NCBI RefSeq assembly: GCF_000406145.1
Contig: NZ_CM001976.1
Location: 4,609,545 to 4,641,544, forward strand
Direction: 5' to 3'
Source: Dickeya dadantii NCPPB 898
GTDB taxonomy: Bacteria > Pseudomonadota > Gammaproteobacteria > Enterobacterales > Enterobacteriaceae
DNA: 32,000 nt
Below, in pieces: positions 6,829-29,822 of the stretch. How positions within the stretch are numbered: the stretch's first letter is position 1; each line of letters starts with the position of its first letter. Both the position numbers and the translations under genes were made by a program. A model generated the notes under the pieces. The model saw only the letters and a list, made by a program, of their open reading frames with translations. It made no database searches and was not told the DNA's origin.

Positions 6829-6900
6829 TTTAAGATTAACAAAATAATAAAAATTAGTCAGCACCAGTATAAACGCATTTAAGTATTGAGGATACCAATC

Positions 6901-7830
6901 ATGAAAATAAAAGCAGCATGCTTATTATGCTTACTAATCAATAATGCAACAATAGCTGACGAATCGAACATTACTTACGGCTACGATAAAAATAAAGGAG
7001 AAATCTATGCAGTAAGTGGGAAGGAAAAAGGAGTTTTAAGTTTTGAAGAGAGTTATACCGGTAATCCTGCTGTTTCGTTTGGATTCTTTAATAATCAACC
7101 ATCAATTATTGTTTCAGCCCGTTCTTTGCATGACTATACCGCTTATATGACATTGCAATTTAAAAACGGTAATTTTTATGCAGACTGTCTATATGTCGAT
7201 ATAAAAAGCAAACAAAACGGTGTTGCTTCGAAAGAAGGCTTGTGCGGGTTAAACACACCGGTTTCAGATGATTATATTGAACTTGTTGAAAAACAAATTA
7301 ATGATGTATCAAATAATATTGACACGGTAGATACATCCTATTTTTTAAATGGAAAAACAACTTACATTCCATTAACTCTCTTTCGTGGGAAAGATAGTTT
7401 AATTTATAAAATATATAAAAATAAAAGTGCCATGCTAAACGATGAATACCAAATATTATTCACTGATAAACATGGGCAATGCCAGTCATACAATAAAAAT
7501 ACGTGGCTAGAATATAACTCAAAAGCTGCGGACAATGCCCATATCAAAGCAGAAAAAAATAAGGATGATCAAATATCATTGATACCTATCGTGGTAGAAG
7601 ATGAAAAAAAATCTAATGATTGTGAAAAATACCCAACATTTAAGGTAAAATCAGATAAATCTTTTTTCTATGATGAAAACAAAAACCCCAAAAACTCTTA
7701 CCTAATAAAAGGGGATGATATTACCTTACTGTCAATTAAGGATGATGATAAATGGTGTCGAGTCAGGTATGTTTCAGAAAAGAACAAAAATACAGATGGT
7801 AATATGCTCTGTTCAACATTGAAACTATAG
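6901..7830 (+). CDS. secreted protein of unknown function (possible second immunity or accessory protein), with an SH3-like C-terminus
   Basis: ATG at 6901 with GAGGA RBS (6888-6892) is preferred over TTG at 6886. Signal peptide MKIKAACLLCLLINNATIA. Very AT-rich. The C-terminal ..LIKGDDITLLSIKDDDKWCRVRYV.. looks SH3b-like. Confidence 0.6.
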   Translation: MKIKAACLLCLLINNATIADESNITYGYDKNKGEIYAVSGKEKGVLSFEESYTGNPAVSFGFFNNQPSIIVSARSLHDYTAYMTLQFKNGNFYADCLYVDIKSKQNGVASKEGLCGLNTPVSDDYIELVEKQINDVSNNIDTVDTSYFLNGKTTYIPLTLFRGKDSLIYKIYKNKSAMLNDEYQILFTDKHGQCQSYNKNTWLEYNSKAADNAHIKAEKNKDDQISLIPIVVEDEKKSNDCEKYPTFKVKSDKSFFYDENKNPKNSYLIKGDDITLLSIKDDDKWCRVRYVSEKNKNTDGNMLCSTLKL

Positions 7831-12485: not shown

Positions 12486-13052
12486 AGGTCAGTCCCTTTT
12501 TCCAGTTTTTTATCATCCGTGCAGTCCTATCAGATGACAATGACAAAACGAATACATCATTACCACACTAATACTTCCATCAATTAACCATAGTTTCTCG
12601 ACGCTATTGATACTTTTTTAGTATCACCTTCCCACGCGTCGTCTACATACCCTAAGCCGACGTCGTCAGGTGGAAACAGCATGTAGAAAAGTCGGGATTA
12701 CAACACATCGCGCTCCTCTGTCGGATCGGCGTCAGTATTTATGGCAACAACCCTGTCCGCCAATTAATCATACCGGCGCTTTATGCCCGAAAAACACCGA
12801 CCAGACGGCGCGTGACCGTTAATCACATCAGACCTCCTGATGGGTTTTATCACGACAACAGAGGGGATTGCTCTGCTGGCAGCGGCCATAATGAGGATAG
12901 AAAAGGAAATAATATGTCAACTAATGAAAATAAACTTTCCTTAAATGAATGCAAATAATCACGCTGGAAAAGCAAGCGGTAAAAACGTTAACATATATCC
13001 CCACCAGGTGAGTTTTGCGTAAAAAGACATAAAAGTGATGACAGGGGGAAAT

Positions 13053-13691
13053 ATGTTAGAAATATTTGATGTGAGTTTTAGCTTAATGTCAAATAACAAG
13101 CTAGATGAGGTGTTTGCACTACGCAAAGGGACATTTAAGGACCGTCTGGACTGGACCGTCAACTGTATTAACGGGATGGAATTTGACGAGTACGATAATG
13201 AACATACCACCTACTTGTTAGGTGTCAAGGAAGGAAAAATCATTTGTAGTGTCAGATTTATAGAAATGAAATATCCCAACATGATTACTGGCACATTTTT
13301 CTCTTATTTCGACGGCCTCAACATTCCCGAAGGGAATTATATTGAATCCAGCCGATTTTTCGTCGACCGCGATCGGGTGAGAAATTTGATTGGCACCCGT
13401 AATCCAGCTTGCCTGACATTATTTCTTGCCATGATCAATTACGCCAGAAAATATCATTATGATGGGATATTCACGATTGTCAGCCACCCGATGCTGACCT
13501 TGTTAAAACGTTCAGGCTGGCGCATTTCCATCATTCAGCAGGGGTTATCAGAAAAACAGGAGAAAATTTATCTGCTGCATCTGCCCACTGACGATGAAAG
13601 CCGATACGCGCTGATCGAGCGCATTACACGGATAACCAACGCCGAATCCGAGCAGCTTACGACCTTGCCTTTGCTGGTCCCACTGGCTTGA
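13053..13691 (+). CDS. expI: acyl-homoserine-lactone synthase (LuxI family)
   Basis: MLEIFDV.. start with GGGGGA RBS. LuxI hallmarks are LRKGTFKDRLDWTV, EFDEYDN, ESSRFFVD and TIVSHPMLTLLKRSGW. It is convergent with a LuxR-type gene, as in soft-rot Pectobacteriaceae. Confidence 0.9.
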   Translation: MLEIFDVSFSLMSNNKLDEVFALRKGTFKDRLDWTVNCINGMEFDEYDNEHTTYLLGVKEGKIICSVRFIEMKYPNMITGTFFSYFDGLNIPEGNYIESSRFFVDRDRVRNLIGTRNPACLTLFLAMINYARKYHYDGIFTIVSHPMLTLLKRSGWRISIIQQGLSEKQEKIYLLHLPTDDESRYALIERITRITNAESEQLTTLPLLVPLA

Positions 13692-15154: not shown

Positions 15155-15466
15155 ATGGATTATTCGGTAATTATTCATCATGATGATGACACCTTGCATA
15201 CCCTCCTGCGCGACAAACTCAGCGCGATTGGCGTCGATAACGGCCGTATCGCCGAGATCTTTCAGGGAGCCCCCTTGTTCGGTGAAGAGGGGCGGCTGGA
15301 CTCCATCAATATCGTCACCCTGATCGCCATGCTCAGCGACCACTGCGAAGCGGCCTATAACCTGAGCGGCGATTTGTTCGACCTGACGGACGACCGCGTT
15401 TTTGATGCGTTCCAGAATCTGACCAGTCTGACGCGCTTCCTGCGCGAGCGGCTTCGCCATGGCTGA
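15155..15466 (+). CDS. free-standing acyl/peptidyl carrier protein (first gene of the Vfm-type operon)
   Basis: ATG at 15155 with AAGGGGAG RBS (the ORF-track start 15083 is rejected). The canonical phosphopantetheine site is in GRLDSINIVTLIAML. Confidence 0.75.
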   Translation: MDYSVIIHHDDDTLHTLLRDKLSAIGVDNGRIAEIFQGAPLFGEEGRLDSINIVTLIAMLSDHCEAAYNLSGDLFDLTDDRVFDAFQNLTSLTRFLRERLRHG

Positions 15467-16781
15467 CCCCACCCCTCCCGTTGCTGCTGAGGCGGGTTCG
15501 CTGTTCGCCAACGGCTATGTAGAAGAGATTCCTGTTGCCAATATTGCCGACCGCATCGGCACGCCTTTCTATGTTTACAGCGCCCGTCAGCTACGCCGCC
15601 AGCTTCAGCAGCTCCGCCAGCAACTGCCAACCGGAACCGCAATTTATTATTCTTTGAAAGCCAATCCTAATCTTTCGGTGGTTAGAGCGTTGGCGGAACA
15701 GGGGGCGGGGTGTGAGGTCTGCTCGCCAGCCGAGCTGAAAACCGCGTTGGCGGCAGGCGTCTCACCGCAGCACATCCTGTATGTCGGGCCGGGCAAATCT
15801 CTGCCGGCGCTGAAACTCGCCATTGACTGCGGCATCCAGGCAATTGTGGTGGAGTCGGTAACAGAGCTGGATAACCTCAACCGGCTGGCCGCACGGGCCA
15901 ATACCGTGCAGACGGTGGCGCTGCGCATCAATCCGGATTTCAGCAGCGCGCACGCCCGGCTGGTGATGAGCGGCAAACCTACCCAGTTCGGCATGACGCG
16001 GGATACCCTGCATACCGTGCTGGTCAGCCTGCACCGCTGGCCTTCCATTTCCCTGCGCGGTTTTCATGTTTATCTGGGTACCCGAATCCTCAATGCGCAG
16101 GCCATCGCCGACAACACCCGTAATATTCTGCAACTGGCGCTGGATCTCCGCAACACGCACCGGTTAACGCTGGATTTCGTCGATGTCGGCGGCGGTTTCG
16201 GCGTACCCTATTTTCCGAAGGAAACGCCGTTGGATCTGCCGGCGTTAGGCGCGGCCATCGCGTCGATCGTGGCGGATTTCCGCCGCCGGGCCGCCGACAC
16301 GCAAATCATCATCGAACTGGGACGTTATCTGGTGGCGGAAGCCGGCCTGTTCGTCACCCGGGTCAACACCCTGAAAACCGCCGGCGGGAAAACGTTCGCC
16401 GTCTGTGACGGCGGCGCCAATTGCCACAGTGCGGCGGCCGGCCTGAACAGCATGCTGCGCAAAAACTTTCCGTTGTTGCGGCTGGGCGACAACCAGGGGC
16501 GGCCGTTGCAGCCTTATCAGGTCAGCGGACCGCTTTGCACGCCCACCGATCTGCTGGGCGACAATGTGCTGCTACCAACGCTGGAGGTCGACGACCTGAT
16601 CGGCATCACCCACTCCGGCGCTTACGGGCTAACCGCGTCGCCGGGTTCGTTCCTCAGTTTCGGTTACCCGGTGGAAGTGATGGTGGACGGTCGACGCCTC
16701 ACGCTGATACGCCAGCCGGAAACCACGGAACAACTGCTGGCCCGGCAACAGCCGGTCGACCTCTGCGGGGATACGCCATGA
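15459..16781 (+). CDS. PLP-dependent decarboxylase, Orn/DAP/Arg decarboxylase (alanine-racemase fold) family; tentatively vfmK by position
   Basis: PLP lysine in YYSLKANPN. Other family motifs are VDVGGGFGVPY, SGPLCTPTD and HSGAYG. Its start overlaps the carrier-protein stop (ATGGCTGA). Confidence 0.85.
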   Translation: MADPTPPVAAEAGSLFANGYVEEIPVANIADRIGTPFYVYSARQLRRQLQQLRQQLPTGTAIYYSLKANPNLSVVRALAEQGAGCEVCSPAELKTALAAGVSPQHILYVGPGKSLPALKLAIDCGIQAIVVESVTELDNLNRLAARANTVQTVALRINPDFSSAHARLVMSGKPTQFGMTRDTLHTVLVSLHRWPSISLRGFHVYLGTRILNAQAIADNTRNILQLALDLRNTHRLTLDFVDVGGGFGVPYFPKETPLDLPALGAAIASIVADFRRRAADTQIIIELGRYLVAEAGLFVTRVNTLKTAGGKTFAVCDGGANCHSAAAGLNSMLRKNFPLLRLGDNQGRPLQPYQVSGPLCTPTDLLGDNVLLPTLEVDDLIGITHSGAYGLTASPGSFLSFGYPVEVMVDGRRLTLIRQPETTEQLLARQQPVDLCGDTP

Positions 16782-17689
16782 CGTTGTGTATCCAGCCGGA
16801 TGACCTGGTATGGCGCGCTTTTGCGCCCGAAAGCGAGGCCGCGTTGCTGGCCCCACATCCCAGTCAGGCTTTGATGGCGGATTACCTGCGCGCTTTTTTC
16901 CGTTCTCACGACGACCCCCAGGAACCGGACGACGCCCTGCTGACCCGCTGGCTCAACAGCGGCCGCCATACGTTTACCGCGATGATGCAGGCGCTGCTGC
17001 CCGAATTGCAGGCGCGTCATACGCTGCAGCAGCTTGATCTGGTGATGTTCGCTCATTGGACGCCCGACAGCACCCTCGGTTGCGCGGTATCCAACGCGCT
17101 GATCCATGCCTGCGACGCCCGACAGGCGTTCGGGCTGTCGGTGTCGGAGCGCGGGCTGGCGGCGCCGCTGTTTGCGCTGCACGCCATCGACGACTATCTG
17201 GCCAGCGATGAAAACCGGCGCGAGGCGTTGCTGATGATTGCCGATCAGGACGTGGCGCCTTACCCCAGCGAACGGCTGGCGCAGTTGCGTCCCCAAAAGA
17301 ACTGTTGCCTGATGCGGATAGAAAAACGCCCGCCCCAGCAGGCCAGCGGGCTGATATTTGAAGGGTATTATCGCCAACCTTACGCCGAAAGCGGCGACCC
17401 GATCGGAGCCATGCGGCAATTGCTCTCGCGCCTGCCCGCGGCGGACACGCTGACGCTGCTGAGCACCCCGTCGCTGGCGGCGGAACTACAGGGCGCGTTC
17501 CCCGAACACCAGACTGCGGCCGTGGCGGAGTCGTTACTGTGCGCCGCCCCGTTCGTATACCTGAAACACCATGCGCAGCCGGGCCGGCGTTATCTGCTGA
17601 CGGTGCCGGAATCGCGTCACCTTACCGCCTGTGTGTTGCGCTACCAGCCTTGCCACGACGGGCCTTTCACTTGCCCTCCCCGTACCTGA
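16778..17689 (+). CDS. FabH-fold (thiolase-like) protein lacking the catalytic Cys; paralog of 27192-28049
   Basis: ATGA overlap with the decarboxylase stop; the ORF-track 5' extension (16421-16777) overlaps that gene and is rejected. The strings ..MFAHWTPDSTLG..GLSVSERGLAAPLFALHAID..LLMIADQD.. align by eye to the FabH active-site region, but no Cys is present. Confidence 0.7.
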   Translation: MTLCIQPDDLVWRAFAPESEAALLAPHPSQALMADYLRAFFRSHDDPQEPDDALLTRWLNSGRHTFTAMMQALLPELQARHTLQQLDLVMFAHWTPDSTLGCAVSNALIHACDARQAFGLSVSERGLAAPLFALHAIDDYLASDENRREALLMIADQDVAPYPSERLAQLRPQKNCCLMRIEKRPPQQASGLIFEGYYRQPYAESGDPIGAMRQLLSRLPAADTLTLLSTPSLAAELQGAFPEHQTAAVAESLLCAAPFVYLKHHAQPGRRYLLTVPESRHLTACVLRYQPCHDGPFTCPPRT

Positions 17690-17701
17690 GAAGGATGCTC
17701 C

Positions 17702-19285
17702 ATGACGAACATTACCCACCTGACCGCCTGGCTTGACCGAGCAGCCAAAGAAGCCGCCAACAAAACCGCGATCATCGACACCGACCGCGAGGTCAGCTGG
17801 TTTATGCTGCGTCTGCAGGCCCGGCAACTGGCGGACTACCTGCGAGAAAACGGGGTGGAAAAAGGCGACCGGGTGATCGTCTGTATGCCGAACTCACTGA
17901 CGTTCGTGCTCTATTTCTGGGCGTTGCAGTATCTGGGGGCGATCTTTATTCCACTGAGCCCGGACACCAAAGCCAGCAAGCTGAGCTGGCTGGTGGACAA
18001 CGCCGGCTGCCGGTTACTGATTGCCAATCGCATCCTGAAAGACGAAATCGGCATCGCTCAGGCAAGCGAGCACTGGCAGCAATACAATCGTCATACCCGC
18101 GTCTGTTTCAGCAATGATGTGGCGGCCGTGCTGGCGGGAGAACCGTATCGCATCTCCGTCGAGCGCGACCGGCAGGCAACGGGCATCGACCTCGATCTGG
18201 CCTGCATTATCTACACCTCCGGCTCGACCGGCCATCCCAAAGGGGTGATGCTTAGCCGACGCAATATGATTACCGCCGCTGGCTCGGTGGCCGGTTACCT
18301 GCAACTGCGCGGCGACGACCGCATCATGTCGATGATCCCGATGAGCTTCGATTACGGCCTGTATCAGGTGATCATGTCGGCGCTGGCGCAGTGTACGCTG
18401 ATCGTAGAGCCGGATTTCCGGCGTCCGCTGCTGTCGTTGCAGCGCATGGTCACCCTGCGCGCCACCGTATTGCCGATCGTGCCGACCATGCTGCGCCTGA
18501 TCGCGCCGCTGGCGTCCCGCTATAACTTCGGCACCATCCGTACCGTGACCAACACCGCCGCCGCGCTGCATGCCGGCGATATCGATCAGTTGCGTACCAT
18601 CTTTCCGCAGGCGCGCATCTACTCGATGTACGGGCTGACCGAGTGCCACCGCTGCACTTACCTGCCGCCGGAATACCTCGCCACCCACCCGCAGAGCGTC
18701 GGCATCGCCATTCCCAACACCGAACTGTGGGTGGTGGACGACAACGGCCAGCGCCATACCCGCAACGCCACCGGCGAACTGGTGATCCGCGGCGCGACCG
18801 TCATGTGCGGCTACTGGCGCAATGAAGAGAAGAGCGCCGAAAAGCTGCGCCCCGGTCTGCTGCCGGGCGAACGGGTGCTGTACACCGGCGACATCTGCCG
18901 GTTGGATGAACAAGGATTGCTCTATTTCGTCGGCCGCCGGGACGAAATGCTGAAAAACTGCGGCGAAAAAGTGGCGCCGAAAGAGGTGGAAGCGGTGCTC
19001 AACCGCCATCCGCAGGTCGCGCAGGCGGTGGTGCTCGGCGTGCCGCACCCGATTTACGGCGACGAAATCATCGCCTGCGTGGTTACCCGCGGCGATCTCA
19101 ACGAAAAGGCGCTGTCGCGCTGGAGCAAAACCCAGATGGAGTCGCACATGGTGCCGCACCGCTTCCGGCTCATATCGCAGCTGCCGCTGAACCATAACGG
19201 CAAGATCAACCGCTCGCTGTTGCGAGAACAACTGACGGCGGGCGCAACGGCTCAGGTTTGCCCGCAGCACGGTCTAATGGAGTAA
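17702..19285 (+). CDS. AMP-dependent synthetase/ligase (acyl- or aminoacyl-adenylating enzyme); tentatively vfmM
   Basis: Core motifs are IIYTSGSTGHPKGVMLS, YGLTE, YTGDICRLDEQGLLYFVGRRDEMLKNCGEKVAPKEVE and NHNGKINR. RBS GAAGGA. Confidence 0.85.
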   Translation: MTNITHLTAWLDRAAKEAANKTAIIDTDREVSWFMLRLQARQLADYLRENGVEKGDRVIVCMPNSLTFVLYFWALQYLGAIFIPLSPDTKASKLSWLVDNAGCRLLIANRILKDEIGIAQASEHWQQYNRHTRVCFSNDVAAVLAGEPYRISVERDRQATGIDLDLACIIYTSGSTGHPKGVMLSRRNMITAAGSVAGYLQLRGDDRIMSMIPMSFDYGLYQVIMSALAQCTLIVEPDFRRPLLSLQRMVTLRATVLPIVPTMLRLIAPLASRYNFGTIRTVTNTAAALHAGDIDQLRTIFPQARIYSMYGLTECHRCTYLPPEYLATHPQSVGIAIPNTELWVVDDNGQRHTRNATGELVIRGATVMCGYWRNEEKSAEKLRPGLLPGERVLYTGDICRLDEQGLLYFVGRRDEMLKNCGEKVAPKEVEAVLNRHPQVAQAVVLGVPHPIYGDEIIACVVTRGDLNEKALSRWSKTQMESHMVPHRFRLISQLPLNHNGKINRSLLREQLTAGATAQVCPQHGLME

Positions 19286-19290
19286 CGTCG

Positions 19291-19599
19291 ATGTCATTCA
19301 ATACCGATTACGCGTCCAACGCCGGCTATCGCCCGGATTTTTACTACCAGAAGATCGCCACGGCGATCGGCATGGTGCTGGAAACCGACGACCTGTCGGA
19401 ACTGCACCCGCATACCGATCTGGAGCGGGATTTAGGGTTCAAGAGCGGCATTTTCATCGAGCTGATGATGTATCTGGAAGAGATGATCGAAGGGTTTTCC
19501 ATCAACCCGGTGACGCTGGACAGCCAGCAGATCAGCACCATCGACTCGCTCGGCCGTTTCATTCACTCACAGTTGGAGCATGACGTCCCTTGTGCATGA
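19291..19599 (+). CDS. second free-standing carrier-protein-like protein with a non-canonical Ser motif
   Basis: ATG at 19291 with a GGAG RBS 8 nt upstream. LERDLGFKSGIFIELMMYLEE resembles DLGxDSLxxxEL, but reads K-S-G where D-S-L is expected. Confidence 0.6.
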   Translation: MSFNTDYASNAGYRPDFYYQKIATAIGMVLETDDLSELHPHTDLERDLGFKSGIFIELMMYLEEMIEGFSINPVTLDSQQISTIDSLGRFIHSQLEHDVPCA

Positions 19600-21140
19600 T
19601 CGCGTCGTGGCAGTATCTGATCACCGTGTTCGCCCGGTTTGACGGCGTACACACTCCCGCCTGTCATCACACCGAAGGTGACCTGACCTATCACCAGCTT
19701 TATCAGGGGGCGCTGGCGCTGGCGGAGCGGTTGCAGGCGCAGCATGAAGCCAGCGGGCATCGCCAGCGCGCGCCGGTGCTGCTGTACGGCCATAAACATC
19801 CTGCCTGCCTGATCGCCTGGTGGGCCTGCCTGCTGACCGGCCATCCGGTAGCGCCGGTGGAAACCGACAACAGCGACGAGCGCCTGCGCTTTATCGCCGG
19901 CGGTATTCAGGCCGGGCTGCTACTCAACGCCACCGGGCAGGCGGCGCCGGATATCGGCATACCCGCGCTGACGGTTTCAACGGCATTATGTGATATGCCC
20001 GCTCCCCGGCTGGCAGACCATTGCCACCAGATGGGGCTGGCGTTCGGCCGGGACACAATCAGCGGCATAGCCTACATCCTGTTTTCCTCCGGCACCACCG
20101 GCGCGCCTAAAGGCATCCAGGTGAGCTACGCCAATCTGGCACACTTTGTACGCTGGCTTACCGAAATATTCCCCATACAAGGTACAATAACCAGTAATAA
20201 TCGATACTCCTTTGACGCATCACAGTATGAACTGTGGTTGGCCTGGTATTACTGCCAGCCACTCTCGATACTGGATTACCGCGACATCATCAATACCCGC
20301 AAGATGATCGCCCGCCATGCCGACGCCCGGCTACAAACCTGGGTCAGCACACCATCATTGCTCCGTTGCTATCTGAAAGATAGAGAATTTAGTCAGCAAA
20401 ACCTGCCGTGGCTGAGCACGTTCATCTCTTGCGGTGAAGTGTTGACGAAAGAGATCGTCAGCACCCTGTGGCGAGCCTTTCCCGGCTGCCGCATCGTTAA
20501 TACGTACGGCCCGACGGAGTGCACGGTCGCCGTCACCGCCTGCGACGTCACCCCCGCCATGCTGGATGACGACGCGCCGCTGCCGCTGGGTTATGTGCGC
20601 CCCGGCGTCGAACTGCGCATCAACGCCCCGGCAGACAGCGAACGCGGGGAAATCGTTATCGTCGGCCCGGCGGTTAGCGAAGGCTACCTGAACGCGCCGC
20701 CCGCCCAGCAGGCGCGTTTCGTCATTGAGCCAGACGGTACCCGCAGCTACCGCACCGGCGACATCGGTTCGCTACGCAACAACCTGCTTTATTTTCATGG
20801 CCGGGAAGACAGCGAACTGAAAATCCAGGGCTACCGTATCGTCCTCAGCGACATCGAAAACACGCTGCGGGAACACCCGCAGGTACAGGACGCCATCGTC
20901 ACCCCATGGCTGCTGCACGGCACGCCGCAGGGATTGCAGGCGTTTATCCTGTCCGGCCAGACGGATATTTTCCCGGCGCTGGCGGCTTATCTGCGCCGCT
21001 ACTTCCCGCTGTATATGGTGCCCAAATTCTGGTATCCAGTGGGCGATGCCGCGCTCAACCACAACAGCAAGCTGGACCGACAGCGTGTCGTCCAGCAGGC
21101 GCTCGACAAAGGCAAACGCTATGTTTTCGTCAGTTCTTAA
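19596..21140 (+). CDS. vfmO: stand-alone NRPS-type adenylation enzyme (amino-acid activating), first of two
   Basis: ATGA overlap with the upstream stop. Motifs are ILFSSGTTGAPKGIQVS (A3), NTYGPTECTV (A5), YRTGDIGSL..LYFHGREDSELKIQGYRIVLSDIE (A7/A8) and HNSKLDR (A10). The letter assignment rests on my memory of the published operon order and is not verified. Confidence 0.8.
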   Translation: MIASWQYLITVFARFDGVHTPACHHTEGDLTYHQLYQGALALAERLQAQHEASGHRQRAPVLLYGHKHPACLIAWWACLLTGHPVAPVETDNSDERLRFIAGGIQAGLLLNATGQAAPDIGIPALTVSTALCDMPAPRLADHCHQMGLAFGRDTISGIAYILFSSGTTGAPKGIQVSYANLAHFVRWLTEIFPIQGTITSNNRYSFDASQYELWLAWYYCQPLSILDYRDIINTRKMIARHADARLQTWVSTPSLLRCYLKDREFSQQNLPWLSTFISCGEVLTKEIVSTLWRAFPGCRIVNTYGPTECTVAVTACDVTPAMLDDDAPLPLGYVRPGVELRINAPADSERGEIVIVGPAVSEGYLNAPPAQQARFVIEPDGTRSYRTGDIGSLRNNLLYFHGREDSELKIQGYRIVLSDIENTLREHPQVQDAIVTPWLLHGTPQGLQAFILSGQTDIFPALAAYLRRYFPLYMVPKFWYPVGDAALNHNSKLDRQRVVQQALDKGKRYVFVSS

Positions 21141-22644
21141 TCCGATTCAGACACAAATGCGGGAAAACCCGCAGCATCTCGCCCTCGTCAACGACAGCGG
21201 CAGCTATACCTTTGCGCAGCTAGGACGTCGGGTAGAAGGCATACGCCAGGCGCTGCGCCGACACACGCCGCGCTGCGTGATGATTTACGGCCACAAGCAG
21301 TTGGACGCCGCCGCCGCCATGCTGGCCTGCGCGTTTGAAGCCATTCCGTTCACCTTTGCCGATATCGCCAACCCGGCCGCCCGTATTGAACGGATCGCCG
21401 CAATAGTTCAGATAGATCTGGTACTGCTGACATGTGAACCGCGAACCTCATTTCCCTCATTGCCGGCACCGACCATCATCACTACCAGTCTGGCAGACAG
21501 TAGCCACCTACTCCCGGCGGTTATCCCTTCACCAGAACAACTCTTTTATATCCTGACCACCTCCGGCAGCACTGGCGAACCGAAAGGGGTAAAGATCAGT
21601 TATGGGAACTTTGCTGCATTTTCTGACTGGTATATCCCCAGTCTTCAGTCGGAACGCTTCCCCGGCGGCCACGTTAATCATGCCTGTCTGTCTTTCGATA
21701 TGGGTATTATGGACCTTTTCCCCTCACTGGCTGCAGGCAAACCGGTCCTGATGCTCAATCATGCTCATAATATCCTCCCCCGCAAGAACCTGCAGTTGCT
21801 CACCGAATCCGCAGTAAAAGCAAGCAGTTGGTTTTCTACACCCAGCTTTTTGGACATTATGTGTATGGATCGCCAATTCAACGCCAAAAGTCTACCTGAA
21901 CTACGCGTAATTTTCGTTGCTGGAGAACCGGTTTCACCTTCATTGGTGCAAACATTGCAAACCCGTTTTCCCCAGGCGGAGATTCGGCACGCATATGGTC
22001 CCACCGAAACGACCTGTGTCACCCACTCCTTATGTTTACCCCCCATTCTTGACGCCAAAACAATATGCGCTTTGCCATTAGGACGACCGCAAGGCACAAA
22101 CCGCATTGTGGTCTGGGATGAATGGAAAAAACCACTTCCGGCTGGTTGCCACGGCGAAATTGTCCTTCTGGGTCCCCAGGTCGGTGCGGGTTATTTACCA
22201 CATGATCTGCCCGCCAATCAGGCCTTTGGTTATCAGGACAATGAACGTTATTACCGTACCGGCGATATCGGCTATCTGGACGAGCAGGGGCAACTGTTCA
22301 TTCAGGGGCGCAAGGATAGTCAAATTAAATGGCACGGTAATCGAATCGATCTGGCCGAAATCGAGAAAGCCGCCGGCCAATGCGATCAGGTAAAACAATC
22401 AGCGGTTTTCATAGAAAAAAACAATAACGTCGTAACTGAACTAGTGTTATGCGTCCATTTGAACATCGACACCCCTGCCCATCGCGACGGCCTGCGGCGC
22501 TCGCTGGCGCAGCGGCTGCCCGCTTACATGGTGCCGCGCGTGATCCGCTTCACCGGCCCGTTTCCGCTGACGCTGCACGGCAAAACCGACCGCCAGGCGC
22601 TGATGCGGCAAGGCGAAACCGACGTGGGAGCCGTGTCGAAGTAA
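21121..22644 (+). CDS. vfmP: stand-alone NRPS-type adenylation enzyme (amino-acid activating), second of two
   Basis: The start MFSSVLNPIQ.. at 21121 overlaps the upstream gene by 20 nt. Motifs are ILTTSGSTGEPKGVKIS, HAYGPTETTC, YRTGDIGYLDEQGQLFIQGRKDSQIKWHGNRIDLAEIE and LHGKTDR. The letter assignment is tentative, as above. Confidence 0.8.
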   Translation: MFSSVLNPIQTQMRENPQHLALVNDSGSYTFAQLGRRVEGIRQALRRHTPRCVMIYGHKQLDAAAAMLACAFEAIPFTFADIANPAARIERIAAIVQIDLVLLTCEPRTSFPSLPAPTIITTSLADSSHLLPAVIPSPEQLFYILTTSGSTGEPKGVKISYGNFAAFSDWYIPSLQSERFPGGHVNHACLSFDMGIMDLFPSLAAGKPVLMLNHAHNILPRKNLQLLTESAVKASSWFSTPSFLDIMCMDRQFNAKSLPELRVIFVAGEPVSPSLVQTLQTRFPQAEIRHAYGPTETTCVTHSLCLPPILDAKTICALPLGRPQGTNRIVVWDEWKKPLPAGCHGEIVLLGPQVGAGYLPHDLPANQAFGYQDNERYYRTGDIGYLDEQGQLFIQGRKDSQIKWHGNRIDLAEIEKAAGQCDQVKQSAVFIEKNNNVVTELVLCVHLNIDTPAHRDGLRRSLAQRLPAYMVPRVIRFTGPFPLTLHGKTDRQALMRQGETDVGAVSK

Positions 22645-22741
22645 CACTTCCCCAAAATAGCGGTACGACCTGCAAGCAGGCATAAAAAAAAACCGCTGTC
22701 GCCGGTAGTCTGGTACAAACGGTATTGACGGGGGAAAAGTC

Positions 22742-23173
22742 ATGAAATTCAGCCATCTCGGATACATCGTCAGGAATAGCGATGCCACTATTGCAGCCAT
22801 GGCGACCTTTTTCCCGCAGATCACCGTGCACCGCAAAAAAGTCAGCGCGCAGCAGATTTACGTCACCTTCATGAACACGACCCACCACGACATGCAGATT
22901 GAACTGGTGGAGCCGCTGCCGGAAAACCGGCTGCTGAGCGGCATGCTGGACAAAGAGAATAAGGATTGCCTGCCCTACCACATCTGCTTTGAAGTGGATG
23001 ATTTCAATAAAAGATATCAACAGCTGCGCGACGACGGCTGGCTGGCGCTGACGCGCCCGTTTCATGCCTACCCGCAGGGGCCGCTGGCCAGCCACCTGTA
23101 TAAACCGGAGGCAGGCATCATGGAGATCATGTCCGGCAGCACCAGTCTGATCGCACAAGGAGAAACCGCGTGA
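22742..23173 (+). CDS. VOC-superfamily protein (glyoxalase / methylmalonyl-CoA-epimerase-like)
   Basis: HLGYIV.., MQIELVEPL and YHICFEVDD are typical VOC beta-alpha-beta-beta-beta module strings. RBS GGGGGAAAAG. Confidence 0.75.
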   Translation: MKFSHLGYIVRNSDATIAAMATFFPQITVHRKKVSAQQIYVTFMNTTHHDMQIELVEPLPENRLLSGMLDKENKDCLPYHICFEVDDFNKRYQQLRDDGWLALTRPFHAYPQGPLASHLYKPEAGIMEIMSGSTSLIAQGETA

Positions 23174-24303
23174 ATGATTACGCCCTTTTCCTTGCGCCCC
23201 TGAAACACCTGATTGAAGACACCCTGTCCGAAGGGCGCCATCTTGGCGGGCAAATAGATATCGCTCCGGAGAAAGCGCGCCTTACCGCGCAGTATTCACT
23301 GGCGCCGATGCTCAATACGCTGGGCGTGCCGACCGACTACCGGCCGACTTGTTGGCTGGAGGAGGAGGGCGTCGCCCTGCGCTCGCTGCCTTTGGCCCTG
23401 CGCTGCGAAGCCTACGAATCGTTTGGCTACATTGACCCCAACCTGCTGTTCGCCGCGCCGGGGCCAGGCATGGCGGCGCTGGTGGTGGAAAACATGGGCA
23501 GTCTGGAACAACGGGATGCGTTCTTCTCCCAGTTTAGCCGCGAGCTGACCTGGAGCTGTTTTGCCATGACCGAGCCGGAGGTGGGCAGCGATGCACAGCA
23601 AATCCAGACCAGCGCCATCAAGGTGGACGGCGGCTGGCTGATCAACGGCGAGAAATATCTGATCGGCAATGGCGTCATTGCCGACACCGGCGTGCTGTTT
23701 GCCCGCACCACGTCCGGCCCGCTCGGCATCAATGTCTTCACCTTTGCGCCGCGCCATCAGGATGGCGTGTTCGCCGAACGTATCCCGATCAACGGCGTGC
23801 CAGGCTGCAATGTATCGCATCTGACGTTCCGGGATCTGTTCGTGCCGGACAGCGCGCTGCTGGGTCAGCACCTGAGGCCGACCGAGCGTTTTGCCCGCTC
23901 GGCGATGGTCACCTTCGACTCGCTGCGCCCTTGCGTCGGCGCGATTGCGCTCGGCGTCGCCCGTTCCGCGCTCGATCTCGCCCTGCAGCAGCGCTGGGCC
24001 ACTCCTCGCGCCGCCTGGTTGCTGAAAGCCCGGCGACAGTTGCAGGCGGCCATGTCGCAGGCCCGGATGGTCTGCAAACGTTTTGAGCAAGGAGAAACCT
24101 GCGGGCGCGACGCCGGGCTGGCGAAAATCACCGCCACCCGTGTGGCCGAGCAAGTGGTGATGGCCGTCATTCATCATGCGCCGCCCGCCGCGCTGGGTGA
24201 ATATCCGCGTCTGGCGAAAACCTGGCGCGACGTGAAAGCCTTCGAATACACCGAAGGCACCACCTTTATCCACCTGATTAACCACGGTTATCGGGGGATG
24301 TAA
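23170..24303 (+). CDS. acyl-CoA (or acyl-ACP) dehydrogenase family flavoprotein, copy 1
   Basis: The GTG start overlaps the upstream stop (GTGA). Motifs are FAMTEPEVGSDA and FEYTEGTTFIH. Confidence 0.8.
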   Translation: MNDYALFLAPLKHLIEDTLSEGRHLGGQIDIAPEKARLTAQYSLAPMLNTLGVPTDYRPTCWLEEEGVALRSLPLALRCEAYESFGYIDPNLLFAAPGPGMAALVVENMGSLEQRDAFFSQFSRELTWSCFAMTEPEVGSDAQQIQTSAIKVDGGWLINGEKYLIGNGVIADTGVLFARTTSGPLGINVFTFAPRHQDGVFAERIPINGVPGCNVSHLTFRDLFVPDSALLGQHLRPTERFARSAMVTFDSLRPCVGAIALGVARSALDLALQQRWATPRAAWLLKARRQLQAAMSQARMVCKRFEQGETCGRDAGLAKITATRVAEQVVMAVIHHAPPAALGEYPRLAKTWRDVKAFEYTEGTTFIHLINHGYRGM

Positions 24304-24304
24304 C

Positions 24305-24817
24305 ATGGCATACCCGGCGTTGGCCCCCGTTAGCCGTTCGATAGTGCAGGAAACCGGCAGTCTGGCGGTGGAAACCCGCGCCACCCCGTTGACGGCACAG
24401 CAGCATGCCCTGTTGTCGCCCTGGTTTGCCCTCAATCATGCCGACCCCGACATTCCCTGGTTTTTGCATGAGCCCGTCCACAGCGACGAATTCGGTCTGC
24501 ATGCCGCCGACATCATCGCGCTCTGCCGCCATTTTTGCGCCAGCCATGCCAATAGCGTCCTGTTGTACGAGTATTGCGGCGCGCCGCTCCAGTTCCGCAC
24601 CCCGCTGCTGCAAAGCCTGCTCTATGCCGCGCCGGGTTTTCATCACAGTCTGGGGATCAAGGCGCAAGGGCGGATCCAGGCCGAACGTGATTTAGCCAGT
24701 ACACTGCTGGGCCACGATGGCGCGGTGCTTTATCTGAGCGACCCGCTGCGCCGTATCAGTCCCTGCGCCGACGCTGCGCCGGTCGTCTACCGTTACTGCC
24801 GGCTTCACCCGCGCTAG
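24305..24817 (+). CDS. 170-aa hypothetical protein; possibly a truncated relative of the Cys-less FabH-fold paralogs
   Basis: It sits in the same position (between an ACAD and a FabH-like gene) as 27192-28049. There is weak by-eye similarity (SLGIKAQGRIQAERDLASTLL..GAVLYLSD versus ALTISDRGPDAALFALSSIA..SLLLIADQ). Confidence 0.55.
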   Translation: MAYPALAPVSRSIVQETGSLAVETRATPLTAQQHALLSPWFALNHADPDIPWFLHEPVHSDEFGLHAADIIALCRHFCASHANSVLLYEYCGAPLQFRTPLLQSLLYAAPGFHHSLGIKAQGRIQAERDLASTLLGHDGAVLYLSDPLRRISPCADAAPVVYRYCRLHPR

Positions 24818-24852
24818 CCCCGTCGCACCGCTACCATGAAGCAGCACAGGCT

Positions 24853-24989
24853 CTTGATGACGCTCCAGCTATTGATGACGCTCCAGCTATTGATGACGCT
24901 CCAGCTATTGATGAAACGCTCCATACTATTTATGGAACACTCCATACTCTTTATGAAACACCCATGCTATTTATGAAACACCCCATACC
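24853..24989. repeat. seven tandem direct repeats of 18-21 bp in the intergenic gap inside the operon
   Basis: (C/A)TTGATGACGCTCCAGCT occurs three times (24853-24906). These are followed by ATTGATGAAACGCTCCATACT, ATTTATGGAACACTCCATACT, CTTTATGAAACACCCATGCT and ATTTATGAAACACCCCATACC. Confidence 0.9.
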
Positions 24990-25047
24990 ATGACGCCGGA
25001 CACGCCGTTCGCCCTTTTTCATCCCGTTAACCGTCAGGAGTGCGCTT

Positions 25048-25971
25048 GTGCTAGGACACCTTGAGGCGATAGAAGTCGCGTTTCCGCCTGAAGTACAATC
25101 ACTGGACGAGGTCGCGCAGGAAGTCGGCATGACCCGGCTTGATGTGCGCATGTTTGACCGTTTTTACGGGCTACGCCGTTTTCACGGCGGCCCCGGCACG
25201 CTGGACGAACTGCTGACGCCGGTTGTCGACCAGATGCGGCACAACCGGCCGCAGGCTTTCGCCGCCATCAGCCATGTCGCGCACTGCCATACCGTGCCTT
25301 GCGTGCGAGTGTTCGAAACCGCGAGCCAGACACCCTCCTGGTTGAATCGCTTTTCACCCCGGACCGAATTCGCCAGCCTGACCATGGGGCACTGCGCCAC
25401 CCCGCTCACCGCGGCGGAATGGTTGCTAAAACAGCTTTCGCCCGACGACTTCGGCCTGATACTGATCGGCGAGAAAGCCTTTCACCCCAGGGTCAGACTG
25501 ATCAAAGACACCACTCTGATGGGCGAGGCCGCCTGCGCGGTACTGTTGAGCCGTCAGGGCGACGGCCCGGCGATCCTCAGCCGTTACACCGGTCAGGATG
25601 GGCGCTTTAGTATCCAGAAAGGCGCCGACGAGCACGAAATCTCCGACTTTGGGCAGCATTATATTGATTTTACCCGCCAACACCTGCAGGCAGCGCTGGA
25701 CAAAGCCGGCGTAACCATTGATTGTATTGCCTGGATCGCCCCTCATAACGTCAATATCTCGTCGTGGCACCGTCTGGCGCAGTTGATGAATTTTCCACGG
25801 GAGAAAATCTTTCTGGAAAACGTCCCGCGCTATGGTCACTGCTTTGGCGCCGACCCGTTTATCAACCTGCGCCAGTTGCAGCAACAGCAGCGGCTGCGCA
25901 AAGGCGATACCGTGCTGCTGGTCAGCGTGGGGCTGGGCGCGACCTACTCATCGTTACTGATCAAGATTTAA
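25048..25971 (+). CDS. FabH-like (KAS III family) condensing enzyme, copy 1
   Basis: GTG start 7 nt after an AGGAG RBS. The active-site Cys is in SLTMGHCATPLTAAEWL and the His in IAPHNVN. The third motif reads RYGHCFGADP where FabH has GNTSAAS. Confidence 0.8.
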   Translation: MLGHLEAIEVAFPPEVQSLDEVAQEVGMTRLDVRMFDRFYGLRRFHGGPGTLDELLTPVVDQMRHNRPQAFAAISHVAHCHTVPCVRVFETASQTPSWLNRFSPRTEFASLTMGHCATPLTAAEWLLKQLSPDDFGLILIGEKAFHPRVRLIKDTTLMGEAACAVLLSRQGDGPAILSRYTGQDGRFSIQKGADEHEISDFGQHYIDFTRQHLQAALDKAGVTIDCIAWIAPHNVNISSWHRLAQLMNFPREKIFLENVPRYGHCFGADPFINLRQLQQQQRLRKGDTVLLVSVGLGATYSSLLIKI

Positions 25972-26071
25972 CCAAAACGCAATATCGGGCAATACACCAC
26001 AACTATTCCCGATAAGGTACATAATTATCGTGCGAATGGTATTTTTTGCGACTCGACTAACAGGACAGATC

Positions 26072-27208
26072 ATGAAGGCTCTTACGTTCAGTAATGTATT
26101 AAAAGAATTGGATGCACTGGGCGAAAAATTACGGCAGGCGGCCAGTCAGGTAGAATCCGATCGTAGCCGGGCGTTATCCTGTCTTGAGGATGAGTTGCTT
26201 TATACCATCGCCTACATTGGCATTCCGCCCGAATTCATTCCGTTTCGGGGGTGGGACTATCAGGCCTGCCACTATAGCGATCACATCGATATGCTGGAGT
26301 ACCTCAGCCGCTTCGACGCCAGCGGTCTGATGATGTTGCCCGGCGCTTCGCTGTCGGCGCGAGCAGTCACGATGCTGGGCACGCCGGAGCAGCAGGCCTT
26401 CTTCTTCTCCCGCTTTAACCAGCCGCCTTGCTGGGCGTTTTTTGCCGTCACCGAACCTGAAGTCGGCTCCGATACGCAATCGATCGCTTCTTCACTGACG
26501 CCGACCGATAACGGCTATGTGCTGCACGCCCGCAAGAAATTCATCGGCGGCGCGCAACTGGCGTCCGTCGGGCTGGTCTTCGCCCGCGAAGGCAACCTCC
26601 AGCGGCTGGTGATGGTGGAGCCCGAACAGGCCGCTTCTCACATGACGATCACGCCGCTTGAACAGTTCGGACTACAGGGTTCTAACCTGACGGAAATCGA
26701 GATCAACGGGCTGCCGGTCACGCCGGATCGCATTCTGGGCTATCACCGCAAAGGGCTGAACCAGGGGCTGACCGCGCTGGGACAGGTGTTTGAACGCCAC
26801 CGTCCGATGGTCAGCGCCATGGCGCTCGGCACCGCCTACGGGCTGCTGCGCGTGCTGGACGACACCGGGCTGAACGCCGAACAACAGCGCTGGCGCGCCC
26901 AGCAGTGGCGTACTTACCATCTGCTGCGGCAGCAACTGTCGGAAACCGCCGCGCGCTACCAGTCCGGCCAGCCGCAATACCACATCACCAGCCAGTTGAA
27001 ACGGCGCTGTACCCTGTTCGTGGAAACGGTGGCGCACCGGATGCCGCATCTGCTGGGCGAGCAAACGTGGCTGGAAGACGCGCCGTTGCGCCGTCGCTGT
27101 CGCGATGCGCTGGCGTTCGAATACATGGAAGGCACCGCCAATATCCATCTGATGAACAGTTTCCGTTGTTACACTGCCAAGGGAGGCGTCTGTGCCCACG
27201 TATCTTGA
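26072..27208 (+). CDS. acyl-CoA dehydrogenase family flavoprotein, copy 2
   Basis: Start MKALTFSNV.. at 26072 (the ORF-track start 26030 is less likely). Motifs are FAVTEPEVGSDT and FEYMEGTANIH. It is a paralog of 23170-24303. Confidence 0.8.
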   Translation: MKALTFSNVLKELDALGEKLRQAASQVESDRSRALSCLEDELLYTIAYIGIPPEFIPFRGWDYQACHYSDHIDMLEYLSRFDASGLMMLPGASLSARAVTMLGTPEQQAFFFSRFNQPPCWAFFAVTEPEVGSDTQSIASSLTPTDNGYVLHARKKFIGGAQLASVGLVFAREGNLQRLVMVEPEQAASHMTITPLEQFGLQGSNLTEIEINGLPVTPDRILGYHRKGLNQGLTALGQVFERHRPMVSAMALGTAYGLLRVLDDTGLNAEQQRWRAQQWRTYHLLRQQLSETAARYQSGQPQYHITSQLKRRCTLFVETVAHRMPHLLGEQTWLEDAPLRRRCRDALAFEYMEGTANIHLMNSFRCYTAKGGVCAHVS

Positions 27209-28049
27209 CCCACGGTCGATACTGCACCGCCGCTTTGCCTCGCCCGCCAGCATGCCGCGGCAGGCGATCAGCCCGGCGCAGGAGTATTACTGGCACAGCT
27301 ACGCCACCCGGTTCTTCGCCAGCAACGGTCTTGACTGGCATGATAGGATGGCTAACCTGCAATCCAGCAGCCGGACCAGCGACCTGACATCGTTCATCAA
27401 CATGATCGGCCAGTTGCTGCCCGTTTATCGGGCCAGAAACGATCTGTCGCATATCGACAGCGTGCTGATGGCGCACTGGACGCCGGACTTACATCTTGGC
27501 AGTTCGGTGATCAACTATGTCATCGAATCGCTCAGGTTGCCGGCCTGTCTGGCGTTGACCATCAGTGATCGCGGGCCGGACGCGGCGTTGTTCGCGCTCT
27601 CCAGCATCGCCAATTGCCAGTTGGAAGATGACCATGACTCGCTGTTGCTGATCGCCGACCAGAGCAACCTGCCGTATCACTCCACCCTGCTTGAATCGCT
27701 CGCCCCGGAAAACAACGCCTGTCTGTTTTCCGTCAGTTGCCACGAGCGGCCGCTGCGCTATCAGGGGTTCTGTCGCCATCCTCAACCCGCGGCCGACACC
27801 CTGGCGCAAACCGTGGCCCAGTTATGCCAGCGCTTTGCCCTGCGGCAAGACCGCTTATGCGTGGTAGCGGAGCCGTTACTGCTGGCGGCGCTGCCGCCGA
27901 CGCTGACCGGTATCGCCACCAACCCGCATCTGGTATGCGCCGCGCCGTTTGTGGCGCTGGCGGAAAATTACCAGCCCGGCCGTGACTACCTGCTGCTGGT
28001 TCATTATCAGGACACGCTCAGCGCAGTCGCATTACAAGGGATGGAATAA
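27192..28049 (+). CDS. FabH-fold protein lacking the catalytic Cys (PqsB-like partner candidate)
   Basis: GTG start 5 nt after a GGGAGG RBS, overlapping the ACAD end by 17 nt. It is a paralog of 16778-17689, with shared strings HWTPD, ..SDRGPDAALFALSSI.., LLLIADQ and VCAAPFVAL. Confidence 0.7.
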   Translation: MPTYLDPRSILHRRFASPASMPRQAISPAQEYYWHSYATRFFASNGLDWHDRMANLQSSSRTSDLTSFINMIGQLLPVYRARNDLSHIDSVLMAHWTPDLHLGSSVINYVIESLRLPACLALTISDRGPDAALFALSSIANCQLEDDHDSLLLIADQSNLPYHSTLLESLAPENNACLFSVSCHERPLRYQGFCRHPQPAADTLAQTVAQLCQRFALRQDRLCVVAEPLLLAALPPTLTGIATNPHLVCAAPFVALAENYQPGRDYLLLVHYQDTLSAVALQGME

Positions 28050-28085
28050 TGGGGGACAGAAACCAGTGCAGGGGCTGAAATAACG

Positions 28086-29024
28086 GTGCGTCTGACCCGC
28101 TTTGTGACCTGGGTGCCGAAGCAACGGCTGAGCGCCGGCGATGTTATTTGCGCCGCAGGCGCCAGCGCATCGGAAGCGCGGGTCTTCTCGCAACTGTTCG
28201 GCTTTCGGCAGGTGGCGGCGCTGGATAGCGATGTGCCGCTGGCTTCGGTGTTCCACCGGCTGCTCAGCGAGTTGCAGCGCCAGTCGCCGCACCCCGAGCA
28301 CCCGGCCGATGTGCTGATCTATGCTCACGGCATGCCGGTGCAGGCGTCGGATCAGCACCCTTGGCTGGTCCAGCTTGGCCGTGAACATCCGTTTATTCGC
28401 GAGCACGCCCCCTGCTACGAACTCGACCAGCAAAACTGCGCCACGCTGTTTTGGGCGCTGGCGCTGGCTCAACGACTGCTGTCGCAGCAACGCGCGAAGC
28501 GGGTGGCGATCATTGCCGGCGATACGTTATCTGCATTTGCGATTCAGGAGCGATATTTTCCCGGTTGTACTATGGTTGGCGATGCCTTCGCAGCACTGTT
28601 ACTGGAAAATCAGCCATCCGGCCTCCAAATAGGACCTGTCTATACCGAACAGCGACCAGAGTTTCATGAAGGCATTCATGGTAGCGAGCACGCCAAAAAA
28701 GCATTTTATCAAGCTCATGATGAGTTGATTTCCGATGCGTTACAAAGCGTAAAGCCAGGCCCCCCGACACATCTCCATCTCTTACCGCACAACGTCAATC
28801 GGTTAAGCTGGCTCAACTATTCCCGCCGTCATCAACATCCGCTGGAAAACATTGCGCTCGGCCTGATGCCGGATATCGGACACTGCTATACCGTCGATCC
28901 GCTGCTGTTGCTACCAGCCGCACTGCCCGCAATTCAGTCCGGCAAGCCCCACGTCATGCTGTCCGTCGGTCTGGGCGCCTGGATCGGCAGTTGCCGAATC
29001 CAGTATGCTGACGCGCCGTTCTAA
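28086..29024 (+). CDS. FabH-like (KAS III family) condensing enzyme, copy 2
   Basis: The N-terminus MRLTRFVTWVPKQRLSAGDV is FabH-like. The Cys is in LDQQNCATLFWALALA, the His in LLPHNVN, and the third motif is DIGHCYTVDP. Confidence 0.8.
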   Translation: MRLTRFVTWVPKQRLSAGDVICAAGASASEARVFSQLFGFRQVAALDSDVPLASVFHRLLSELQRQSPHPEHPADVLIYAHGMPVQASDQHPWLVQLGREHPFIREHAPCYELDQQNCATLFWALALAQRLLSQQRAKRVAIIAGDTLSAFAIQERYFPGCTMVGDAFAALLLENQPSGLQIGPVYTEQRPEFHEGIHGSEHAKKAFYQAHDELISDALQSVKPGPPTHLHLLPHNVNRLSWLNYSRRHQHPLENIALGLMPDIGHCYTVDPLLLLPAALPAIQSGKPHVMLSVGLGAWIGSCRIQYADAPF

Positions 29025-29306: not shown

Positions 29307-29822
29307 ATGAAAGCGTTGCTTTGTTCCGCGCTGGTGCTGCTGCCATTGACGGTGGCTTGTTCGCCGGCGAATCAGCAAAACGTGGATGTGCCCTCCTTTA
29401 CGACATTGGATGTTAGCCGTGGCCTGAGCGTCACTTTGGTTTGCGGTAATGGATACCGCGTGGAGGCCAGCGCCAGACAGGATGTTCTGGATAAGCTGGT
29501 CGTCCGCCCTCAGGGACAGAGTCTGATCATCGAAAACCATTCCAGCGATGACAATATCCTGCGTGATCACAGCGCAGCGATTACGGTCATTATCAGCGCA
29601 CCGATTACTACGATTAAGGCACAGTCAGGTGTCAGGATGACCGTTCCCGCCTGTGCGGTTTCGCCCGACACATTCACGGTCGACGGCAGCATGGGCGCGG
29701 AGATCAACGTCGCGGGCAATACACGTCAGCTCGACCTGTCGCTGGCGATGGGGTCATCTTTCAATACGCGTGAACAGGCTTTTTCGGCGCAGGAGGCCGT
29801 GGTGAATATCGCCAGGGCGTAG
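29307..29822 (+). pseudogene. DUF2807-like (adhesin-head GIN-domain-like) lipoprotein, apparently frameshifted near its 3' end
   Basis: Strong RBS GGAGAGAGG. Lipoprotein-type signal MKALLCSALVLLPLTVAC. It has beta-helix-like repeats. After the TAG at 29820-29822 a further 43 codons (DARLCHVRQLSGTITTGARVRVAPDTLVHTSNGVASL..) continue in another frame to the TGA at 29951-29953. Confidence 0.5.

Follow-up and report, generated by a model that had tools for sequence, protein, structure and literature searches.

A tandem repeat array in the vfmS-vfmT spacer of Dickeya dadantii, probably a neutral intercistronic minisatellite

The window, by which we mean the whole 32,000-nucleotide stretch of DNA that was analysed, carries expI/expR together with the vfmK-W signal-biosynthesis operon of Dickeya dadantii. 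The genes and gene groups relevant to the locus are listed below.

13035-13691: autoinducer synthase (Autoind_synth), of the expI/expR pair
Convergent to the autoinducer synthase gene: LuxR-type receptor (Autoind_bind and GerE)
15459-29024, + strand: long operon encoding a PLP decarboxylase, three AMP-ligases, a glyoxalase-fold protein, two acyl-CoA dehydrogenases and two FabH-like proteins
19258-19599: putative vfmN, a 113-aa ORF named by position only, filling an apparent gap at 19285-19590
24305-24817, + strand: vfmS, 170 aa, function not assigned, upstream of the spacer (WP_038912257.1)
25048-25971, + strand: vfmT, FabH-like protein with a KAS III C-terminal domain, 307 aa, GTG start (WP_038912258.1)
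Downstream of the operon, - strand: PPTase and histidine kinase

Names such as vfmS were taken from the gene order given in PMC9239193 Table S1A. The gene order of the operon agrees with that of TU 1958, vfmK to vfmV, of strain 3937 (PMC9239193 Table S1A), and the 230-bp gap at 24818-25047 is therefore the vfmS-vfmT junction of the Vfm quorum-sensing cluster. The protein upstream of the gap, VfmS, gave no match to a Pfam family, and the database entry identical to it (WP_038912257.1) is annotated as 'hypothetical protein [Dickeya dadantii]'. The downstream protein, VfmT, matches PF08541 (FabH C-terminal) with E = 2.4e-20; its orthologues in Dickeya are 307 aa long and share the same start, and that of Musicola has 325 aa. 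An exact match was also found for the acyl-CoA dehydrogenase (WP_038912256.1, D. dadantii RefSeq). The exact VfmS and VfmT of the window had no matches in the contig index, and both were present in the protein collection.

The operon holds two copies of a three-gene module, at 23170-25971 and 26030-29024, each with the order acyl-CoA dehydrogenase, protein without a Pfam match, FabH-like protein. The first and last genes of the two copies are recognisably related, VfmR and VfmU being 28% identical (BLASTP E = 3e-33) and VfmT and VfmW 25% identical (BLASTP E = 5e-16). Full-length VfmT-like proteins with 44-51% identity occur in Pseudomonas, Rahnella, Vibrio and Prodigiosinella, and others with 36-41% identity in Sinorhizobium and in marine alphaproteobacteria such as Leisingera, Phaeobacter and Yoonia. 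The Vfm system has been called not widespread in a review (PMC7912708).

Most of the gap is occupied by a head-to-tail array at 24853-24989, with successive unit lengths of 18, 18, 18, 21, 21, 20 and 21 bp. Tandem Repeats Finder placed the array at 24850-24988 with scores of 119-125, and divided it into a period-18 part (3.6 copies, 97% matches, score 123) and a period-21 part (4.0 copies, 84% matches, score 119). The original prediction, a seven-copy array of 18-21 bp units in the only sizeable gap of the operon, upstream of a FabH-like gene with its own ribosome-binding site and GTG start, was borne out by the program as well as by direct reading, which found the units at exactly the stated positions. 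The wording about the gap is approximately right, the other apparent gap being filled by the putative vfmN. The parts of the spacer are as follows.

24818-24835, + strand: 5' part of the spacer, CCCCGTCGCACCGCTACC, common to the sister species (alignment A2)
24836-24856, + strand: diverged leading copy, ATGAAGCAGCACAGGCTCTTG, overlapping the first unit in the ATGA register, with a non-overlapping part at 24836-24852
24853-24870, + strand: unit 1, CTTGATGACGCTCCAGCT, 18 bp
24871-24888 and 24889-24906, + strand: units 2 and 3, both ATTGATGACGCTCCAGCT, 18 bp each
24907-24927, + strand: unit 4, ATTGATGAAACGCTCCATACT, 21 bp
24928-24948, + strand: unit 5, ATTTATGGAACACTCCATACT, 21 bp
24949-24968, + strand: unit 6, CTTTATGAAACACCCATGCT, 20 bp
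24969-24989, + strand: unit 7, ATTTATGAAACACCCCATACC, 21 bp, with a core, ATGAAACACCCCATACC, that corresponds to the single unit of the sister species
24990-25047, + strand: vfmT leader, 58 nt, with an AGGAG ribosome-binding site at 25036-25040

The motif ATGA is present in every unit, and the three 18-bp units (24853-24906) make up the variable part of the array. The 20-nt consensus of the long unit has three matches in the window, compared with 0.00 expected from 100 shuffles. The leading copy ATGAAGCAGCACAGGCTCTTG resembles the right-hand flank of the array, TACCATGACGCCGGACACGC (also read as ATGACGCCGGACACGC), and the two sides were recovered as a direct-repeat family, D4, in which 24832-24851 and 24986-25005 are 80% identical over 20 nt. 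In alignment A2 the diverged leading copy is present in D. dadantii only. The vfmT leader, its AGGAG and the GTG at 25048 are kept in all ten aligned sequences, which cover eight Dickeya species. The leader also contains a weak hairpin followed by a T-run (24997-25011), and terminator-like sites occur at chance frequency (1 found, 0.9 expected).

The array region differs from its surroundings in composition, with a GC content of 0.42-0.46 against about 0.6 in the flanks. Within the 13.6-kb operon the C/G ratio peaks at 3.83, in the 78-nt stretch 24914-24991, and a ratio of 2.0 or more is reached in just 2.8% of operon windows. The ratio has a second maximum, about 3.2, around position 28760 in vfmW. 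Folding of the array RNA was not unusual (z-score 0.14, with 113 of 200 shuffled sequences folding at least as well), and no Rfam match was obtained at E <= 1.

Orthologous loci were gathered by exact look-ups of the proteins in the VfmT cluster, and one genome scan added D. undicola; the species of each locus was then assigned via an exact look-up of the VfmS that it encodes. The sample comprises about ten D. dadantii loci and one D. solani locus, and D. aquatica, D. lacustris, D. poaceiphila, D. oryzae and D. parazeae fall outside it. The 170-aa VfmS proteins were found grouped in 90%-identity clusters with the 377-aa VfmR, to which they bear no obvious similarity. This co-clustering is probably a clustering artefact, for example via a fused gene call, which is conceivable because vfmR and vfmS lie only 1 nt apart, and it may account for the yield of only four VfmS hits in the first homology search. 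Spacer lengths and unit numbers for the loci read are given below.

D. dadantii, window: spacer 230 bp, 7 units
D. dadantii 3937 and five other assemblies: spacer 231 bp, 7 units
D. dadantii, two assemblies: spacer 213 bp, 6 units, exactly one 18-bp unit fewer
D. solani: spacer 102 bp, 2 units of 17 bp, ATGAAACGCCACATATC and ATGAAACATCCCATACC
D. fangzhongdai: spacer 92-93 bp, 1 unit
D. undicola: spacer 91 bp, 1 unit
D. dianthicola: spacers 90 and 75 bp, 1 and 0 units
D. chrysanthemi: spacer 70-91 bp, unit not recognisable
D. zeae MS1: spacer 93 bp, unit not recognisable

Comparison of repeat counts across Dickeya, which had been proposed together with the original prediction, thus found the array in D. 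dadantii and not in the other Dickeya species read; the genus presupposed by that proposal was the correct one. Among the species sampled it is restricted to D. dadantii, and it is missing from seven other vfm-bearing Dickeya species. In alignment A2, of ten sequences, D. dadantii carries a clean insertion of about 138 bp; the flanks, conserved across species, are the 3' end of vfmS on one side and the 58-nt vfmT leader on the other. The first two units measure 18 and 18 bp in the window allele and 19 and 18 bp in the 231-bp allele. The vfmT DNA of the D. dadantii strains is 99.5-99.8% identical to that of the window, yet three spacer alleles occur among them, so that change is faster in the array than in the sequence beside it. 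By eye, the last D. dadantii unit agrees at 16 of 17 positions with the second D. solani unit and with the D. dianthicola unit, which places the expansion on the 5' side of the ancestral unit.

Length differences were also seen in other species. The two D. dianthicola spacers (L017, 90 bp; L018, 75 bp) differ by 15 bp, so the site is unstable in a second species; the shorter one is without the 17-bp unit, and the bases right after the vfmS stop differ as well. In one D. fangzhongdai locus (L024, CP119773.1, 1409-1500), a 1-bp deletion in the C-run of the spacer brings the upstream ATG into frame with vfmT, and the predicted VfmT carries a 19-residue N-terminal extension.

Transcription of the locus was considered using the published transcript map of strain 3937 (Forquet et al. 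2022, PMC9239193 Table S1A). In this map, TU 1958 has its primary transcription start site (TSS) at 4713300, a sole internal TSS at 4720678, upstream of vfmQ, and internal transcription termination sites (TTSs) at 4721195 and 4722331, and all 11 of its gene junctions were validated by long native nanopore RNA reads (PMC9239193). Strain 3937 has the same array, as the 231-bp allele, and its gap corresponds to 4722769-4722999. The map, made under limited growth conditions, lists neither a TSS nor a TTS within that interval (PMC9239193). A weak or conditional start in the gap may have been missed, because few growth conditions were covered and the vfm genes are perhaps weakly expressed. The strong internal TSS of strain 3937 falls in the vfmP-vfmQ gap (about 22645-22741 of the window; PMC9239193). 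Of the strong internal TTSs, one lies within vfmR, some 70 nt from its start, and the other within vfmS, some 77 nt from its start (about 24379 of the window), and because of them part of the transcription may end before vfmS.

The period of 18-21 bp, about two helical turns, is reminiscent of operator arrays, and an internal regulated promoter with sites for AraC-type or response regulators had indeed been suggested for this gap. The array would then consist of direct-repeat sites for the AraC-type regulator VfmE or the response regulator VfmH, or of iteron-like sites, driving an internal vfmT promoter. Consistent with this, the gene that directly follows the array has its own ribosome-binding site, the region has a higher AT content than its flanks, and VfmE is reported to bind the promoters of all vfm operons (PMC7912708). 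The reported targets of VfmH and VfmE, however, are the operon promoters and not the vfmS-vfmT spacer (PMC7912708), and the papers on these two regulators give no DNA-binding consensus. D. solani, D. fangzhongdai, D. undicola, D. dianthicola, D. chrysanthemi and D. zeae are without the array despite having the same regulators, and no start is mapped in the gap of strain 3937. No sigma-70-like site was found in 24200-25400, and the sigma-54 pattern was at chance in the window (151 matches, 159 expected); the two three-mismatch sigma-54 matches inside the array were taken as noise. The 32-kb window, which takes in the expR-vfmK intergenic region with the vfmK promoter but not the vfmE and vfmA promoters, contains no further copy of the unit, and the array region has no inverted repeats. 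For iterons in particular, neither a replication gene nor an origin is nearby, the neighbours being biosynthetic (acyl-CoA dehydrogenase, FabH-like), and a search of a plasmid collection with the array region gave no match. A role as operator array, iteron or internal promoter is thus very unlikely, and this part of the original prediction largely fell with the missing array in the sister species and the missing internal start. An action in cis on the mRNA, in which the array loads Rho or uncouples translation and so lowers or tunes vfmT-V relative to vfmK-S, is somewhat less improbable but still unlikely. In its favour, the array brings the spacer from some 90 nt to 230 nt, the C/G maximum of the operon lies in the array, as would be expected of a Rho-loading site, the RNA is no more structured than shuffled sequence, and strains differ in copy number. 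On the other hand, no TTS is reported at or shortly past the gap in strain 3937 and its vfmS-vfmT junction is spanned by long reads (PMC9239193), the same pathway runs in sister species that have no array, and the vfmT leader and ribosome-binding site are unchanged, so that vfmT can initiate on its own. It is distinctly improbable that the 140-nt C-rich, G-poor array sets the ratio of vfmK-S to vfmT-V, with the unit number as a heritable, quickly mutable dial on the Vfm signal; if copy number did alter vfmT-V expression, the array would bear on the tuning of Vfm signalling.

Two further readings concern the coding capacity and the origin of the array. The 170-aa VfmS had been described as truncated-looking, with its C-terminal half expected where the array now lies, and the array might accordingly be the remnant of that lost half, or else an inserted mobile or dispersed repeat of the REP or MITE type. 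VfmS is indeed shorter than VfmV (285 aa), its positional counterpart in the duplicated module. The two proteins, however, have no similarity detectable by BLASTP, and the VfmS homologues of Dickeya and Musicola are 170-177 aa long (some shorter annotated forms have 149-165 aa), with and without the array, and end at the same stop in all species of alignment A2. A mobile element is opposed by the lack of inverted repeats and of copies elsewhere, a 22-mer across a unit junction having no exact match in metagenome and viral contigs, and the relatives already have, in their spacer, the sequence from which the units arose. The chance that the array is a gene remnant or a mobile repeat is accordingly close to nil, and VfmS is not a truncated gene. 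Almost as hard to credit is a small repeat peptide encoded by the array, such as that of the 52-aa ORF of strain 3937, MKQHRLLMTLHAIYDAPAIDDAPAIDETLHTIYGTLHTLYETPMLFMKHPIP, perhaps linked to the Vfm signal. Units of 18 and 21 bp contain whole numbers of codons, and an ATG at the 24836 position opens an ORF across the array of 52 aa in the 231-bp allele and 46 aa in the 213-bp allele, the 18-bp deletion being in frame; this ATG lies 18 nt past the vfmS stop, which makes re-initiation conceivable. No Shine-Dalgarno sequence precedes the ATG, however, and the 19- and 20-bp units change the frame within the array. The window allele, 1 bp shorter than the 231-bp allele, reads MKQHRLLMTLQLLMTLQ... 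in place of MKQHRLLMTLHAIYDAPAIDDAPA... and yields an unrelated 46-aa product. In the sister species, all with a working Vfm system, the ORF has six codons or is missing.

Several candidate reading frames in the spacer were rejected. The array as a frameshifted C-terminus of VfmS was considered since the frame ...IDDAPAIDDAPAIDETLHT... is open upstream, but the stop and the length of VfmS are conserved across species. The 46-aa and 52-aa ORFs across the array were not accepted as genes, as they are not conserved between alleles. A 24-codon ORF from 24990 (MTPDTPFALF...) ends 17 nt inside vfmT and keeps its frame in most species; it was treated as non-coding, its frame being broken in D. dianthicola, D. 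fangzhongdai L024 and Ech1591.

The reading that we consider probable is that the array is a slippage-generated intercistronic minisatellite, or variable-number tandem repeat (VNTR), that is specific to D. dadantii and likely neutral. Its units fall in the range of 10-100 bp and are repeated head to tail beyond chance, its copy number varies, and its orthologous flanks are conserved, as in VNTR loci, and it lacks the features examined of an operator or promoter array, iterons, a coding repeat or a structured RNA. The proposed starting point is an ATGA-anchored 17-bp unit followed by a second ATGA segment, both already in the spacer of the relatives. Replication slippage or unequal exchange would have enlarged this short direct repeat in the D. 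dadantii lineage, and small indels would have produced the unit lengths of 18-21 bp. The species may be arranged in a series of 17-bp units that runs from none recognisable (D. chrysanthemi, D. zeae, one D. dianthicola strain) through one (D. fangzhongdai, D. undicola, D. dianthicola) and two (D. solani) to 6-7 together with a diverged leading copy (D. dadantii). We infer both the slippage mechanism and the neutrality. The suggestion of a hypervariable locus holds, unit number varying among D. dadantii strains (spacers of 213, 230 and 231 bp) and among species (none, 1, 2 and 6-7), and that of a recombination scar holds in part, in that the array would be a product of slippage or unequal exchange and is not a scar of gene loss.

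The array is transcribed within the polycistronic vfmK-V mRNA, and the conserved 58-nt leader of vfmT, with its ribosome-binding site, is unaffected by it. Most probably it has no dedicated function. It more than doubles the untranslated spacer and adds eight AUGs, and an effect on vfmT-V expression is possible on account of the longer spacer, the added AUGs and the extreme skew of C over G.

The minisatellite resembles the bacterial intergenic VNTR loci used in MLVA typing in its non-coding head-to-tail units of 17-21 bp with internal variants, in a unit number that varies between close strains and species, in its origin from an earlier short direct repeat and in giving no signal of function. 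It differs from the usual intergenic VNTR in lying in an intercistronic spacer of a quorum-sensing biosynthetic operon, and hence in being transcribed. With iterons and with AraC- or OmpR-type operator arrays it shares direct repeats about two helical turns apart and an AT-richer stretch; unlike plasmid Rep iterons it has no origin or rep gene nearby, and unlike operator arrays it has no associated TSS, is not conserved along with the regulators, and its motif is not found at the other promoter region of the window. Phase-variable contingency loci likewise have slippage-prone repeats of varying number beside virulence-related genes, whereas the units here are long (18-21 bp) and imperfect, do not separate promoter hexamers and are not part of a reading frame. 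With the start and ribosome-binding site of vfmT both intact, they imply no on/off switching. The resemblance to rut regions is compositional only, the array RNA being untranslated, weakly structured, C-rich, G-poor and longer than 80 nt, and in contrast to rut regions no termination downstream of it is reported in the strain 3937 map (PMC9239193).

A repeat in the vfmS-vfmT spacer is not mentioned in the Dickeya papers found by full-text searches, and the variable regions identified in a study of vfm polymorphism, in vfmO, vfmP, vfmW and vfmG, do not include this spacer. The array matters little for the biology of the system; recognising its nature removes a false lead of an internal promoter or operator in the Vfm signal operon and warns against over-reading the periodicity of repeats. 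It is also of practical interest, both as a candidate VNTR locus for strain typing and because spacer length (213-231 bp, compared with 70-102 bp in the other seven species read) could mark D. dadantii.

A few minor features accompany the array. In the species with a single unit, the unit forms a six-codon mini-ORF (MTRSIS or MKHPIP, each followed by a stop), as seen among loci L019, L028, L001 and L017. The TGA of the mini-ORF overlaps the ATG of an ORF of about 24 codons, MTPDTPFALFHPVNRQECACARTP followed by a stop (24969-25064 of the window). This ATGA overlap chain resembles a translational-coupling relay, with the frame broken in D. dianthicola, D. fangzhongdai L024 and Ech1591. Two other tandem repeats were found in the window, one of 24 bp in 2.0 copies (78% matches) at 29570-29616, inside a DUF2807 gene (29307-29822), and one of 15 bp in 2.5 copies at 6762-6799, upstream of an ORF at 6886-7830.
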